Shown one piece after another: positions 3,514 to 52,927 of a DNA stretch of 64,000 nucleotides. Every line of letters begins with the position of its first letter. Within the stretch, counting starts at the first letter, position 1. This DNA comes from a virus, in the IMG/VR virus record IMGVR_UViG_3300046786_000502, positions 32,001-96,000 of that record; one strand, given 5' to 3'. Below the pieces are notes generated by a model. The model was not told where the DNA came from. It saw only the letters and a list, made by a program, of their open reading frames with translations, and ran no database searches. Position numbers and translations under genes: made by a program.

Positions 3514-3938
3514 TGGCTAATAAAAAAATAGTTATCCCCAAGGGTCAACTCCCTAGTCCAACATCAGACAACTCATTCTTAATTAAATACAGACTTATTG
3601 CTGATAGAACTAAGGCATCTGATTGGTCTACTACAGAAGTAGTTAGAAATGTGTCAGTTGCATCGTCTGCGATTGTTCCATCCTACAGTTCTGCTACCAA
3701 GATTTTGTCTGTTGTTTGGCAACCATCAAACACAAACCTATATGATGTTTTTGTTAGATATGGATCAAGTGAAACATTTACTTATGCTGGATCGACAATG
3801 GCTACAAACTATTCAATTATTGTGCCAGAAGCCAATTGGTCATCTACGGCAGTCGTCAGGGTACAGTCAAATACTTCCTCTCACGAAATTTCCAATAGTT
3901 TGCTGGTAGCCTTGACATCTACCATTAATCTGGTATAA
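3513..3938 (+). CDS. Hypothetical beta-rich (Fn3-like) structural protein
   Basis: Coupled ORF, Ser/Thr/Val rich. Confidence 0.5.
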   Translation: MANKKIVIPKGQLPSPTSDNSFLIKYRLIADRTKASDWSTTEVVRNVSVASSAIVPSYSSATKILSVVWQPSNTNLYDVFVRYGSSETFTYAGSTMATNYSIIVPEANWSSTAVVRVQSNTSSHEISNSLLVALTSTINLV

Positions 3939-3939
3939 T
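3912..3939 (+). promoter_or_regulatory. Sigma70/SigA-type promoter
   Basis: TTGACA-N16-TATAAT with extended TG, upstream of AAGGAG SD. Confidence 0.7.
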
Positions 3940-3955
3940 CTTATAAGGAGAAAAC

Positions 3956-4402
3956 ATGGCAAATATACTAAGAACACCAAGTGCAGGTCAGCCAATTGAT
4001 GCAACCTATTTGCTAGAGATTGCTAAAGCTGTCAATGACCTATCAGACAGAATTGCTGCAACGTCTACCATGCAGTACTTGACAGTAGACACTAAGTCAG
4101 TAGGCAAGCAGTCAATCAAGACATCAGAGGCTAGAATCATTGGTGCATACACTGATGTATTCAGTGGCACTGTTACTGCTAACCAAGAAAAAGAATGGTC
4201 CATTGACTTTCCGCCAGACTTTAAGTATCCACCAATAATTACAGCAACCCCAGTAGCGATTACTGGTAGCTCTTCTGGAACTGGTGTTAGTGTTGTTATT
4301 AAGACTATTTCAAAAAGCAAGGTAACTGGTGTGGTCAGCTTTTCCACTGGTGGTAACTTCGCTATTGGTGTAAACGTCATTATTGTTGGAATTCCAAACT
4401 AA
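3956..4402 (+). CDS. Hypothetical protein (H-type lectin/tail-fibre-end-like)
   Basis: 148 aa. FPPDFKYPPIITAT motif and C-terminal VNVIIVG pattern. Confidence 0.5.
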   Translation: MANILRTPSAGQPIDATYLLEIAKAVNDLSDRIAATSTMQYLTVDTKSVGKQSIKTSEARIIGAYTDVFSGTVTANQEKEWSIDFPPDFKYPPIITATPVAITGSSSGTGVSVVIKTISKSKVTGVVSFSTGGNFAIGVNVIIVGIPN

Positions 4403-28827: not shown

Positions 28828-29880
28828 ATGAAAAAGATTATGGTCTTTGGCCTAACTTTTGTATTTTTATTTACTGGTGTTGGTTGTGCAGATGCAGCAA
28901 CTGTAAAGTGTTCATCTTCAAAAAAGACAGTTGCTTGTAAGACTGTTACAGCACCAAAAAATCCTACTCCTACTCCTACACCAAAGGTATTAGGGTCAGA
29001 CTTTTCTACGCTAGTTGCATCATTCAAAGATGTAGATAAGTATATTAATTATGGCGGATATGTTTTTCCAACTGAAAACCTAAAGATTGGGCCAAGCCTT
29101 GACCCAGCAATTAAGAAAAATATTCCAGAAGTCTATCAGCTTATAGGTAGTGTCTTTTCTCCATTCTATGCACCAACATACTATTACTCTATCGTTACAT
29201 CTGAGCTTGACGTTGCTTGGGGAGCATCTCCAGAAATCAATCGTGTAGATGATAGATGGAAGGGCTACTCTACTGACATCAATGGCAAAACCTGCGAGAA
29301 TGGCAATGGCGGTAATGAGTGGAGCTCAATCTCTTGCATGTGGTCAAACAAACCTGAGTGGTGGAGAAACCAACTATTAGCACATGAGTATGTTCACAGT
29401 GTGCTGTACACAACAGGTGGAACAAAGCTTGGCAAAGTAACTAACTACCAACGTGCTTTCGATATTCCATCTTGGCTCAATGAGGGTGCTGCAACATACT
29501 ATGGTTGGTGGCTAGCACAGGTTAAAGACAAGAATATTGAAAAAAATGTTGGAGGTCACCTGTCTGGATTTGGCTGCATGATTCCTGGATACAATGACCT
29601 AAAGACACAGGATAAATTTGTTTCTGAAATGAAGTCAATTGAAACAGGCAAGGGTAGCTGGGCAAAGCAGTATGGATATGGTGCTGTCTCTGTAGCAGAA
29701 CTGATCACATACTATGGTGGGCACAAAGCAATGTTGAACTTCTATGAACGCATGAGAACTACTAGTGACTGGAGACTTGCTTTCAAAGAATCATTTGGAG
29801 TTACTCCAGAAGATTTTTATAAACAAGAATATAAAGATTTCATGAAAATTTCTCCAAGTTTGACTTGCAAACTACCGTAG
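28828..29880 (+). CDS. Secreted zinc metallopeptidase-like protein
   Basis: Signal peptide, PT linker, AHEYVH (HEXXH) and PSWLNEG gluzincin motif. Confidence 0.75.
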   Translation: MKKIMVFGLTFVFLFTGVGCADAATVKCSSSKKTVACKTVTAPKNPTPTPTPKVLGSDFSTLVASFKDVDKYINYGGYVFPTENLKIGPSLDPAIKKNIPEVYQLIGSVFSPFYAPTYYYSIVTSELDVAWGASPEINRVDDRWKGYSTDINGKTCENGNGGNEWSSISCMWSNKPEWWRNQLLAHEYVHSVLYTTGGTKLGKVTNYQRAFDIPSWLNEGAATYYGWWLAQVKDKNIEKNVGGHLSGFGCMIPGYNDLKTQDKFVSEMKSIETGKGSWAKQYGYGAVSVAELITYYGGHKAMLNFYERMRTTSDWRLAFKESFGVTPEDFYKQEYKDFMKISPSLTCKLP

Positions 29881-29934
29881 TACATGTTATAATTAATTAC
29901 AACAAAATAGGAAGTCCATCCTTAACGGACACAA

Positions 29935-30007
29935 TGCCCTATAGCTCAGCTGGCAGAGCGTCCGACTGTTAATCGGCAGGTCCCTGGTTCGATCCCAGGT
30001 GGGGCAG
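29935..30007 (+). tRNA. tRNA-Asn(GTT)
   Basis: Cloverleaf; anticodon loop ct-GTT-aa; T loop TTCGAT. Confidence 0.92.
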
Positions 30008-30011
30008 CAAA

Positions 30012-30192
30012 CACATTGACGACGGTTGATGTGGAGTATGACCGAATAATTCCCAAAGTCAAATGGGGGGAATAAGGTACTATCGGATCTTAGCGGATCG
30101 TCTTAGCGGACAAACGGTAGGTGTGCTCAAAGCGGTACTTGATGAACCGTATTGACTAGGCACTGGTGGTAAAAGGCAATCCACCTACTCAC
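30012..30192 (+). ncRNA. Candidate structured ncRNA between tRNA-Asn and tRNA-Asp
   Basis: Multiple nested complementary segments found by eye; no credible ORF. Confidence 0.5.
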
Positions 30193-30196
30193 TCTT

Positions 30197-30270
30197 GGTC
30201 CTGTAGCTCAGTTGGTTAGAGCACTACCCTGTCACGGTAGGGGTCGCCAGTTCAAGTCTGGTCAGGATCG
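30197..30270 (+). tRNA. tRNA-Asp(GTC)
   Basis: ctacc-ct-GTC-ac-ggtag anticodon arm; T loop TTCAAGT. Confidence 0.93.
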
Positions 30271-30277
30271 CTCAGAA

Positions 30278-30436
30278 GCATGAGTCTGAACAACTTATGT
30301 GGAGATTGTTATACTGAAACTACGCTGTGGACGCATCATACGAAGGGGTTCAGCCCGATGGAGATTGCTCTGCTAATCCACTAGGTATAACAGCCAATGG
30401 GAACAGTTCCTTAACCAAAAGGTGACCACGATTGGC
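30278..30436 (+). ncRNA. Candidate structured ncRNA between tRNA-Asp and tRNA-Leu
   Basis: Nested stems tgttatac/gtataaca, gtgga/tccac, catc/gatg, gccaat/attggc. Confidence 0.45.
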
Positions 30437-30440
30437 AAAT

Positions 30441-30514
30441 GCTTCTCTAGCCCAATTGGTAGAGGCACTAGATTTAGGATCTAGGTGTTACAGGTTCGAC
30501 TCCTGTGAGGAGCA
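30441..30514 (+). tRNA. tRNA-Leu(TAG), short variable loop
   Basis: ctaga-tt-TAG-ga-tctag; discriminator A. Confidence 0.85.
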
Positions 30515-30515
30515 C

Positions 30516-30589
30516 TGGGATATAGTGTAATGGTAACACAACGGCTTCCAAACCCGTTGACGTGGGTTCGATTCCTACTATCCCTGCCA
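30516..30589 (+). tRNA. tRNA-Trp(CCA)
   Basis: acggc-tt-CCA-aa-cccgt by position; discriminator G; encoded CCA end. Mismatches at 1:72 and 31:39. Confidence 0.75.
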
Positions 30590-30590
30590 T

Positions 30591-30665
30591 GCCTTCTTAG
30601 CTCAGTGGTAGAGCAACGCACTTGTAATGCGTAGGTCGTCAGTTCAATCCTGACAGAAGGCTCCA
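30591..30665 (+). tRNA. tRNA-Thr(TGT)
   Basis: acgca-ct-TGT-aa-tgcgt; CCA end. Confidence 0.94.
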
Positions 30666-30666
30666 T

Positions 30667-30741
30667 GGTCCCATAGTTTATCGGTTAGAACGCTGCCCTT
30701 TCACGGCGGTGGGAGGGGTTCGACTCCCCTTGGGACTACCA
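30667..30741 (+). tRNA. tRNA-Glu(TTC)
   Basis: ctgcc-ct-TTC-ac-ggcgg; CCA end. Confidence 0.93.
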
Positions 30742-30745
30742 ATAT

Positions 30746-30816
30746 TCTCCCTTCGTCTAATGGCAAGACTCCAGGTTTTGGTCCTGGCTATCGAGGTTCG
30801 AGTCCTTGGGGGAGAG
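30746..30816 (+). tRNA. tRNA-Gln(TTG)
   Basis: ccagg-tt-TTG-gt-cctgg. Confidence 0.92.
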
Positions 30817-30856
30817 CAAGATTAATTCATTAGTGCTATAATAGTCTAAGAAAGGT

Positions 30857-31567
30857 TTGGATGTGGAAAAACCAGATATAATGACGATGGACGTACCCAA
30901 TTTTAACGTGTGGTACGAAACTTTTGATCCTATTTTTTCTAAGATAAGTCAGCAGTCGAATATCCCATTAAAGTGGATAGAGTTTTGGCCAATAAGATAT
31001 GGGCAGAACAAGAACTCTCCAATCAAACCAATCAATAGATATGTAGAAAGGTTGTACCCAAAGCCAAAGCTTATAGATATTAGTAATAATATAGTTAGGC
31101 TTAGACAGGGCAACCATGCAGAAATCATTCTACTGGTAGATCCAGAAAATAGATTCCATAGTGGCGGTCAAGATACAGATGGATTCTACAATGTTGATAG
31201 GCCATGGATGAGACAATACTATCAGTCTAAGCTACAAATTCCAAAGCCAGACAATTGCTTTGACCCATTATATAAATTTTACGTTCCATGGTTTCCAGAT
31301 GCTGATGTTACTGTTCATTTTGAGCCATCTCCAGTAGAGACCCCATTCCACACCTTTGAGTCAGTAGGATCGTACAAAAAAGTAGATGCATTCCTAAGAT
31401 TTGCTGAGCCACACTTTGTTCCCTTCTATTTTAAAAAAGAAGGGGCACACATGGAAAGTCCAACACAAGGAAGAGTTCTAAGACAGTCTGCAATGTACGA
31501 TATGGTATTTCATGCAGATGATGCTTTGATAGAGAGAATAAGGAAACAATATGAAGAAAAAGAATAA
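30857..31567 (+). CDS. Hypothetical protein (possibly a distant relative of the next two genes)
   Basis: 236 aa. KFYVPW motif. Start codon uncertain. Confidence 0.6.
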   Translation: MDVEKPDIMTMDVPNFNVWYETFDPIFSKISQQSNIPLKWIEFWPIRYGQNKNSPIKPINRYVERLYPKPKLIDISNNIVRLRQGNHAEIILLVDPENRFHSGGQDTDGFYNVDRPWMRQYYQSKLQIPKPDNCFDPLYKFYVPWFPDADVTVHFEPSPVETPFHTFESVGSYKKVDAFLRFAEPHFVPFYFKKEGAHMESPTQGRVLRQSAMYDMVFHADDALIERIRKQYEEKE

Positions 31568-51493: not shown

Positions 51494-51512
51494 GAAAGAC
51501 TATATATATTGA
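51414..51512 (+). CDS. Lys-rich micropeptide MKCLQKILNTLASLKASRRYKKAIKRKKDYIY
   Basis: Own TG-n-TACAAT element just upstream; its stop overlaps the carbamoyltransferase TTG start. Confidence 0.55.
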   Translation: MKCLQKILNTLASLKASRRYKKAIKRKKDYIY

Positions 51513-52927
51513 AAATCTTTGGCTTTAACGAAACCTCTCATGATGCTTCTGTGTCTGTAATTAAAAATGGAATGATTCTATTTGCTGGTCATGCTGAAAG
51601 ATATAGCAAAGAAAAAAATGACTGGTATACGAACAAAGAATTGTGGAATGACGCATATATGTGGGGCAAGCCAGATGCCATTGCATACTATGAAAAGCCG
51701 TGGCTAAAGAAGATTAGGCTATCTTTGCGTGGTGGTGCTGCAGACTGGAAGCCATTACATAGATATGATGTTGCATTTAAACATCACTACTCTCATGCAT
51801 GTGCAGGATACTATACTAGCCCATTCGACAAGGCAGTAATTGTTGTCCTTGATGCGATGGGAGAGTTTGCGACATCTACTGTTTGGTCTGGCGATGGCGA
51901 AGATATAAAGTTAGTCAAAGAAGTTAAATATCCGCTAAGCTTTGGTCTATTTTATACTGCTTTTACCAAACTAATAGGACTAAAGCCAAATGAGCACGAG
52001 TACATTCTTATGGGAATGGCAGGGTATGGAGATCCAACAACCTACTATGAAGACGTATTATCATATTTTCCCAGCATAACTAGCCAGAAGTATAACTACC
52101 ACAAGGGGATAACAGACTGGCCATACAACATTCTTAAAGAACAGGACAAGTTTGACATTGCTGCTGCTGTTCAGTTTGTATATCAAGAAAGACTAATGGA
52201 GTTTATGTCTAAAGTTAGACAGGACCTACCAGAATACAATAATCTTGTTTTTATGGGTGGGTGTGCCCTGAATGCCTCAGCTAATACAAAGCTTTGGGAT
52301 CTGTTTGATGATATTTGGATAATGCCAAATCCAGGAGATGCTGGAAGCTCTTTAGGTGCAGCTCTTGCACTACGTGGACAGCATGTTAAGTGGGAAGGCC
52401 CATATCTTGGGCATGATCTTGGTAACGAATACCCAGTTGATGCAATCTTTAATGAGATAATGACAAATAAAATTTGTGCTGTTGCTGCAGGTAGAGCAGA
52501 GTTTGGACCACGTGCATTAGGAAACAGAAGTATCTTGGCAGATCCACGTGACCCAGATATTAAAGATAAAGTTAATCTAATTAAACAAAGAGAACTCTTT
52601 AGGCCATTTGCCCCTGTAGTCATGGCAGAACATGCATCTGAATGGTTTGATATGGATTATGAATCTCCATACATGCAATACACACCCAAGTGCCTCAAGC
52701 CTGAGCTGATTCCATCAGTGGTCCATGTAGATGGTACATCTAGAGTTCAGACAGTCACAAAGGAGCAGCATCCAGGGCTGTACGAGGTTCTGAGACGTTT
52801 TTATGAGGCAACTGGAGTTCCAGTACTACTGAATACCAGTTTAAATGTAAAGGGCCAACCATTGCTTAATGACAAAGAAGACATTAAGCTTTGGGAGCAA
52901 ACATACAATACCAAGATTGTGATATAA
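51509..52927 (+). CDS. Carbamoyltransferase (NodU/CmcH family)
   Basis: HDAS, ERYS..K, HHYSHA, MGMAGYG, GGCALN, GDAG, EFGPRALGNRS, RPFAP, LNTS.N. Confidence 0.95.
   Translation: MKIFGFNETSHDASVSVIKNGMILFAGHAERYSKEKNDWYTNKELWNDAYMWGKPDAIAYYEKPWLKKIRLSLRGGAADWKPLHRYDVAFKHHYSHACAGYYTSPFDKAVIVVLDAMGEFATSTVWSGDGEDIKLVKEVKYPLSFGLFYTAFTKLIGLKPNEHEYILMGMAGYGDPTTYYEDVLSYFPSITSQKYNYHKGITDWPYNILKEQDKFDIAAAVQFVYQERLMEFMSKVRQDLPEYNNLVFMGGCALNASANTKLWDLFDDIWIMPNPGDAGSSLGAALALRGQHVKWEGPYLGHDLGNEYPVDAIFNEIMTNKICAVAAGRAEFGPRALGNRSILADPRDPDIKDKVNLIKQRELFRPFAPVVMAEHASEWFDMDYESPYMQYTPKCLKPELIPSVVHVDGTSRVQTVTKEQHPGLYEVLRRFYEATGVPVLLNTSLNVKGQPLLNDKEDIKLWEQTYNTKIVI

Follow-up and report, generated by a model that had tools for sequence, protein, structure and literature searches.

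A divergent manA RNA lies between two tRNA genes in a phage tRNA array

The 64,000-nucleotide stretch of viral DNA analysed here (the window) belongs to an IMG/VR virus record of 116,893 bp that CheckV rates as complete, and it carries an array of seven tRNA genes on the + strand (Asn, Asp, Leu, Trp, Thr, Glu and Gln; 29935-30817, ARAGORN). The genes of this array are separated by 0-4 nt except at two places, 30008-30196, which holds a structured RNA, and 30272-30440. What is the RNA that fills the first of these gaps, between tRNA-Asn and tRNA-Asp, and how would it be produced and used? No open reading frame of 50 or more amino acids overlaps 29881-30480 on either strand. An earlier note, made from the letters of this DNA, had described an uncharacterised non-coding RNA in a region of raised GC content, with the remaining tRNA spacers measuring 1-4 nt. 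The GC difference was confirmed (0.48-0.51 across the array versus 0.34-0.42 in the flanking coding bins), and the spacer lengths were nearly right (0-4 nt measured), apart from the second long spacer of 169 nt at 30272-30440, which that description does not mention.

A scan of the whole window against Rfam 15 assigned positions 30014-30195 (+) to the manA RNA family, RF01745, with 64.7 bits and E = 3.4e-14; the match spans model positions 1-192 of 192 and exceeds the family gathering score of 55.2 bits. The element at 30012-30196 (+) is therefore almost certainly a manA RNA, and it is the only copy in the 116,893-bp record. Our own covariance model, R1, built from the alignment A2 described below, scores 212 bits at 30010-30197, a value that follows by construction since the window is one of its training sequences. 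The element thus belongs to a known RNA family and is not a new kind of RNA: the Rfam search that the earlier note had itself proposed as a check returned a known family, contrary to the reading as uncharacterised, while the note's view of a genuine structured non-coding RNA with a pseudoknot was borne out by covariation in relatives.

The same scan bears on a self-cleaving ribozyme that would release the neighbouring tRNAs, like the HDV-like theta ribozymes. The position beside tRNAs is the one observation in favour of this reading, which we find hardly credible: within 29800-30950 no Rfam match at E <= 1 was obtained for GOLLD, ROOL or any ribozyme family, HDV-like, hammerhead and twister included, and apart from manA and the tRNAs nothing of note matched there, the manA model accounts for the entire element, and no cleavage activity is mentioned for manA in the cited sections of Weinberg et al. 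2010 (PMC2864571) or of a 2026 cryo-EM preprint (10.64898/2026.07.01.735769). Across the whole window, the GOLLD and ROOL models gave no match at gathering score.

The manA family was first described from marine metagenomes, T4-like cyanophages and two gamma-proteobacteria, as a riboswitch candidate located in 5' UTRs (PMC2864571), and 48 significantly covarying pairs are reported for it in Rfam 14 (PMC7779021). Features common to the element and the family are the GACG loop of the P1 hairpin, the UGACYGAAUAA junction after the closing helix, the UAAGG junction, a domain of several stems, the GGUAA...AAUCC loop of the terminal hairpin, and a pseudoknot between a loop and the 3' strand, which Weinberg et al. 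marked as 'pseudoknot?' (PMC2864571). It also differs from the canonical type in several respects: its score of 65 bits compares with 150-182 bits in cyanophage-type copies; it carries twin UUAGCG hairpin loops; it resides in an actinophage-like freshwater virus, whereas the family was described from marine cyanophages and gamma-proteobacteria; and it sits flush between two tRNAs and not in a 5' UTR. We place the element in a divergent manA branch, marked by the twin UUAGCG loops and housed in the tRNA arrays of phages.

On the + strand, the fold begins with the P1 hairpin (30012..30033), in which the arms CACATTGAC (30012-20) and GTTGATGTG (30025-33) enclose the GACG loop; it is covered by the first hairpin of the Rfam model, and 6 of its 9 pairs change on both sides among relatives. 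The core (30034..30190), recognised by the RF01745 match and by covariation, is closed by P2 (gagta/tactc, 30034-38 / 30186-90), within which lies the junction TGACCGAATAA. P3 is formed by two segments (30041-43/30076-78 and 30050-54/30068-72), the latter being a covarying ttccc/gggaa stem, and P4 (ctatcg/cggtag, 30080-85/30115-20), which covaries as well, encloses the twin hairpins P5 and P6 (gatc-TTAGCG-gatc and gtc-TTAGCG-gac) with their identical TTAGCG loops at 30090-95 and 30103-08. These are followed by P7 (gtgc/gcac, 30123-26/30160-63), which covaries, by P8 (gcgg/ccgt, 30132-35/30147-50), where variation is one-sided only, and by P9 (ggtgg/ccacc, 30165-69/30181-85; loop TAAAAGGCAAT), which is nearly invariant and so uninformative on covariation.

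Several of these stems had been read from the single sequence in the earlier note. The P1 hairpin, the closing helix, the ttccc/gggaa stem and the ctatcg/cggtag helix around the twin TTAGCG hairpins were all found in their places and all covary. The ggtgg/ccacc stem fits the structure but, being almost invariant, offers no double-sided changes. The proposed arm gtgc..tcaa..gcggt survives in part: its gtgc/gcac pairs covary and gcgg/ccgt is compatible with the one-sided variation seen, but the inner tcaa/ttga helix is not conserved. At loci L136 and L171 its 5' side stays CTCAAAA while the 3' side changes with the P3 loop, and this inner helix competes with the pseudoknot for the same 3' strand.

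Statistical support for the fold came from two approaches. The ten helices and the pseudoknot were evaluated on A2, a plain MAFFT alignment of 15 sequences that had not been fitted to the structure. In this alignment 87.8% of the cells assigned to pairs are indeed paired; sliding the 3' partners by 1-3 columns lowers this to 35-47%. Double-sided changes occur in 25 of the 54 pairs. The covariation score of 0.385 compares with 0.05-0.12 for the slid partners and was reached by none of 500 shuffles, which supplies the covariation that the earlier note had wanted to see in homologs. In another control that it had named, folding against shuffled sequences, the spacer (~189 nt) has a minimum free energy of -58.6 kcal/mol, compared with a mean of -47.1 (sd 4.3) for shuffled versions (z = -2.70), and only 2 of 200 shuffles fold as well. 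A further MAFFT alignment, A3, in which the branch was combined with canonical cyanophage copies, misaligned the P3 region and was set aside.

The pseudoknot suspected from the complementarity of agtcaa and ttgact is supported. Its 5' half, AGTCAA, is located in the P3 loop (30057..30062, +), and its 3' half, TTGACT, in the strand between P8 and P7 (30152..30157, +), with compensatory change in 3 of the 6 pairs. Five lineage-specific versions exist, each forming a perfect match of 5-6 bp with its own partner: AGTCAA/TTGACT in the window, GTTAGA/TCTAAC in Rhodococcus phage Francesca, AGCTAT/ATAGCT at L136 and L171, GCATGT/ACATGC in the L127 group, and TGGCA/TGCCA at L314 and L335. When all loops were compared with all 3' strands, cognate combinations gave 5-6 bp and non-cognate ones 2-4 bp, with a single case of 5; the loop of L070 forms only 4 bp with its own 3' strand. 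As judged from these sequences, the pairing between the P3 loop and the 3' strand may occur within one molecule or between molecules.

To place the element among its relatives, we searched cultured phages and IMG/VR, a database of uncultivated viral genomes. Among cultured phages, blastn with the element found Francesca only, at 76% identity; the Francesca element, at about 76479-76666 of PP978770.1, in turn found only itself, and the L127-type element gave no match in this collection. Scanning IMG/VR for TGGTAAAANNCAATCCA yielded at least 118 loci, 24 of which also have the upstream junction motifs and amount to 13 distinct sequences, and a second scan with GAATAA...TAAGG...TTAGCGG added the lineages L314/L335 and L070/L095. 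The branch stands close to the limit of the Rfam model, the window copy lying only ~10 bits above the cut-off: L123, L201, L172, L175 and L227 score 62-68 bits against RF01745 and Francesca 72.9 bits, and L127, L133, L136, L070 and L095 fall below the cut-off (51.8 bits for L070) yet align throughout.

Adjacency to tRNA genes is a common property of this branch. Among the IMG/VR matches listed, a tRNA lies within ~30 nt on at least one side in 21 of 24 branch loci. In Francesca, manA begins 3 nt after tRNA-Met and ends 1 nt before tRNA-Lys; at L175, L201 and L210 it is flanked as in the window; at L172 and L227 it follows by 7 nt a tRNA that only Rfam detects; at L070 and L095 tRNA-Gly ends 5 nt ahead of it and tRNA-Pro starts 2 nt behind it; and at L314 it begins 2 nt after tRNA-Pro. 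All 14 loci of the L127 group have an upstream tRNA-Ser, and two have tRNA-Tyr directly downstream. In most members of this GC-rich lineage ~133 extra bases separate manA from tRNA-Tyr, the two being directly adjoining in L133 and L140, a difference that is an insertion or deletion of another module. The flanking tRNAs vary by lineage (Asn, Met, Ser, Gly or Pro upstream; Asp, Gly, Lys, Tyr or Pro downstream), and no particular tRNA is therefore under regulation. Flanking tRNAs are also not obligatory, because three of the 24 branch loci (L136, L171 and L206) have no tRNA within ~2 kb of manA and L335 has none anywhere in its 5.6-kb locus. The L136 locus carries a tmRNA (131 bits) and two tRNAs at 3763-4096 (-), ~2.5 kb from its manA copy.

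Across the wider family such adjacency is less frequent. A general IMG/VR sample, collected by the family junction pattern, comprised at least 119 loci, and R1 found 95 matches at E <= 0.01 in 94 of the loci listed; a tRNA on the same strand within 20 nt accompanies only 9 of these 95 matches, again among those listed, and these nine include some copies with Rfam scores of 113-180 bits. R1 replaced a regular-expression filter for the 3' hairpin (GGTA...AATCC), which passed 60 of 120 and missed copies of 150-180 bits in Rfam. The canonical manA type matched 37 Prochlorococcus/Synechococcus myovirus records. A strict 20-base pattern for the P9 hairpin occurred at three places in 185,579 species genomes, none of them a full manA: two were 22-nt local matches and one a weak 117-nt match, with no tRNA nearby. 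This gives no sign of a prophage or host copy, though so strict a pattern does not demonstrate absence. In the main texts covered by a literature search, manA was reported neither from tRNA arrays nor from actinophages.

These contexts allow the established view of the family to be weighed, namely that manA is a cis-acting riboswitch or leader controlling the gene downstream, as in its Rfam type 'Cis-reg' and its listing among 5' UTR riboswitch candidates by Weinberg et al. 2010 (PMC2864571). The arrangement in cultured cyanophages agrees with it, since canonical manA there precedes protein genes (carbamoyltransferase in P-SSM7, purL in P-SSM2). The window copy does not occupy such a position, its next gene being tRNA-Asp, although this is a feature of context and not of the RNA and leaves its manA membership intact. 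The cis-regulatory reading is weakened here because the gene that follows is a tRNA and not a protein gene, beginning 6 nt after the closing helix with no room for an expression platform. Moreover, the scan returned no terminator-like site on the + strand within the array (29935-30817) and no promoter-like site on that strand from tRNA-Asn to the end of the manA RNA, the downstream tRNA changes between lineages, and no manA ligand is reported in the literature cited. The flush position, the lack of a promoter-like or terminator-like site or an open reading frame of its own, and the changing tRNA neighbours therefore make a role as a gene switch unlikely for this copy, and we give the riboswitch explanation a low probability.

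The window virus encodes a Nol-like carbamoyltransferase of its own at 51509-52927 (+) (phrog_1601, E = 3.9e-104), and in P-SSM7 (L350) canonical manA is directly upstream of a gene annotated as Nol-like carbamoyltransferase. In the window the enzyme gene and manA are 21 kb apart, and the parallel with P-SSM7 may be coincidence.

The same evidence from context points instead to release of the RNA by RNase P and the tRNA 3' processing enzymes, and we consider it probable that the element is a free RNA of ~189 nt excised from the tRNA array by these activities. A promoter-like site, TTGCAA-17-TATAAT with a TG before the -10 hexamer (29865..29893, +; 10 of 12 consensus positions, extended -10), lies ~41 nt upstream of tRNA-Asn and, judging from its consensus match, is the presumed promoter for the entire tRNA/ncRNA array. 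The manA RNA, which has neither a promoter nor a terminator to itself and no protein gene to follow it, would be transcribed from this site together with the seven tRNAs (29935-30817), and the enzymes that mature the flanking tRNAs would release it. Upstream, tRNA-Asn (GTT; 29935..30007, +; 62.1 bits) has no encoded CCA and ends in its discriminator base at 30007; a 4-nt linker, CAAA (30008..30011, +), connects it to P1, and relatives carry a CAA(A)CA motif in the same position, where the alignment consensus begins AACA. Processing of the tRNA-Asn 3' end would thus cut 4 nt before P1. Downstream, a 6-nt tail, ACTCTT (30191..30196, +), reaches the 5' end of tRNA-Asp (GTC; 30197..30271, +; 66.2 bits). 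RNase P cleaves at the 5' end of tRNAs, and from this general role a cut at 30196/30197, 6 nt past the closing helix, is predicted. The product of this inferred co-transcription and excision would be a compact free RNA of ~189 nt that acts in trans.

A comparable case is the tRNA cluster of phage T4, which encodes small stable non-tRNA RNAs, species 1 and 2 (bands C and D); they are transcribed along with the tRNAs, and the enzymes that process those tRNAs set them free. To our knowledge, their function has long been obscure. The analogy with the window manA is one of biogenesis only.

Excision by tRNA enzymes could also be turned into an opposite argument, in which the element is a processing or spacer insulator that assists RNase P, RNase E or RNase Z in the tRNA operon and is functionless once released. 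The flush placement between tRNAs in most lineages, and the several unrelated spacers of 120-260 nt held by the same arrays, are what this explanation would expect. A fold of ten helices, a pseudoknot that covaries and invariant loops, all kept from cyanophages to actinophage-like viruses, are however more than an insulator would require; 86 of the 95 manA matches (among the IMG/VR matches listed) are not within 20 nt of a tRNA, and the remaining tRNAs of the array manage with spacers of 0-4 nt. We judge it improbable, to the same degree as the riboswitch, and retain the free, excised RNA as the preferred reading.

We then considered the carrier virus and the public libraries that contain it. 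Its DnaE-type polymerase is closest to those of Streptomyces phages (55.7% identity), and this, together with the nearest manA being that of a Rhodococcus phage, leads us to infer from sequence likeness an actinobacterial host. Eleven public runs each contain at least half of the sampled words, and all are labelled as freshwater or aquatic metagenomes. RNA library X10 contains an exact contig of 370 nt over 30057-30426 at depth 695, compared with 4-14 for exact contigs of flanking genes, and X14 contains an exact 138-nt contig over 30027-30142 at depth 2115, compared with 10-17 for flanking genes, as well as contigs over 30195-30434 at depth 180-233. These depths are weakly in keeping with abundant stable RNAs, this evidence being assembled contigs, whose depth is a poor measure of expression, in which RNA ends are invisible and DNA carry-over is possible. 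Run X18 has a contig of a relative's manA (2 differences and 1 gap) at depth 1678 and run X17 an exact contig at depth 2.7; both runs contain small shares, and parts left uncovered are uninformative. One X14 contig has an adapter-like loose end before 30027, which may mark a fragment end inside P1. Among the contig joints listed, the only one connects 30459 to 30632 (run X14) and does not involve manA; none joins both manA ends, which, coming from contigs only, says little.

The X10 contig starts in manA, crosses tRNA-Asp and reaches the following spacer, which fits an unprocessed precursor or DNA carry-over. This exact contig over 30057-30426 could alternatively be taken to mean that manA, tRNA-Asp and the 169-nt spacer form one GOLLD-like RNA of ~430 nt with an embedded tRNA, and tRNAs are indeed mentioned in the GOLLD linker region in the part of Kretsch et al. 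2025 cited here (PMC12286853). The arrangement in relatives speaks against such a unit: at L201, manA is followed by tRNA-Gly and a different 173-nt spacer, and only then by tRNA-Asp and the second element, and at L172 a different, unrelated 171-nt sequence occupies the second-spacer position after tRNA-Asp. Since P2 closes the core from 30034 to 30190, leaving only the P1 hairpin outside, and the Rfam search described above found neither GOLLD nor ROOL, we regard a single composite RNA as very unlikely, and return to an excised manA RNA with boundaries at its two tRNA neighbours.

The second spacer (30272-30440, +; 169 nt, tRNA-Asp to tRNA-Leu, GC ~0.47-0.49) has no Rfam match at E <= 1 and folds no better than its shuffles (z = -1.03). 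It was tried as a further manA copy and rejected, R1 giving one match only in the window and Rfam none at this place. It is kept after tRNA-Asp at L175, L201 and L210, with a few compensatory-looking changes (for instance GGGG..CCC to GGTG..ACC), and is covered by exact RNA-library contigs at depth 180-695. The manA-bearing arrays (L175, L201, L172, L127, L133, L135 and L002) contain many other inter-tRNA spacers of 120-335 nt; by sequence they make up a dozen or more unrelated clusters, and they include a 214-nt Glu-to-Trp spacer common to L175 and L201 as well as several spacers in Francesca. In the eight loci scanned, L135 being left out, none of them matched Rfam at gathering score. These spacers may be further tRNA-flanked RNA modules.

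What would the released RNA do? The strongest lead comes from the 2026 cryo-EM preprint (10.64898/2026.07.01.735769), in whose cited sections five manA RNAs are reported to assemble, from pentamers held by kissing loops, into octamers, decamers or a 60-mer cage; the word tRNA is absent from the main text of that preprint as available. Because other manA RNAs are reported there to self-assemble, homo-oligomeric assembly into an RNA-only particle would be the most likely molecular activity of the window RNA. Extrapolated in this way from relatives, none of which is known to come from the UUAGCG branch, self-assembly of the window manA is a tentative proposal, to which we give somewhat less than even chances. 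The setting further resembles, as the earlier note had pointed out, that of GOLLD and ROOL, two RNAs that form cages and, in phages, are both encoded close to tRNA islands (Kretsch et al. 2025, PMC12286853, in the part cited). Like the element, they are phage-encoded; they often lie near tRNA islands and form RNA-only homo-oligomeric cages, as its manA relatives are reported to do; GOLLD and ROOL are, however, several times larger and unrelated in sequence and fold, so that the likeness is one of behaviour and not of membership.

The contacts that could support such an assembly were sought in the alignment. Comparison by eye found no Watson-Crick partners inside the element for the UUAGCG loops or the P9 loop, and because the UUAGCG loops have no internal partner, there is no way to transfer the preprint's kissing-loop contacts to it. 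The candidate contact sites are the invariant UUAGCG loops, a third AGCGG and the GUAC/GAUC palindrome. The last is found in GGTACT (30134..30139, +), which follows the conserved AGCGG and has a self-complementary centre, GTAC (30135-38). Eleven of the 15 aligned branch members have GTAC at this place and four have GATC, both self-complementary, whereas the palindrome is absent from L314, L335 and L070 in sequences compared by eye. It is a possible site of RNA-RNA self-contact, and the GTAC/GATC pattern rests on one or two evolutionary events.

These elements can be joined in one more ambitious proposal, according to which RNase Z and RNase P excise manA together with the tRNAs, the RNA forms RNA-only cages in infected actinobacteria, and the "pseudoknot" is in reality an intermolecular address code. 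The five pseudoknot versions would then let each phage's RNA assemble only with itself, and the GUAC/GAUC palindrome would provide a second self-contact. As a whole we consider this combination unlikely, though less so than the riboswitch or the insulator. If it were true, manA would join GOLLD and ROOL as a third and far smaller family of this type, and all three would be tied to tRNA biology.

The finding also matters for the family. Since 2010 manA has counted as an orphan riboswitch candidate, and its Rfam type is still 'Cis-reg'. In this branch the copies are set flush against tRNAs and have no gene to control, which speaks for stand-alone RNAs at least here, and their placement gives a simple prediction of the ends of the manA RNA. 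Francesca provides a cultured carrier in which biogenesis, oligomeric state and the effect of loss of function are directly testable, something difficult to do with the marine copies. Such work, combined with the 2026 cage preprint, would help to show whether a common role unites small phage RNAs near tRNA islands.
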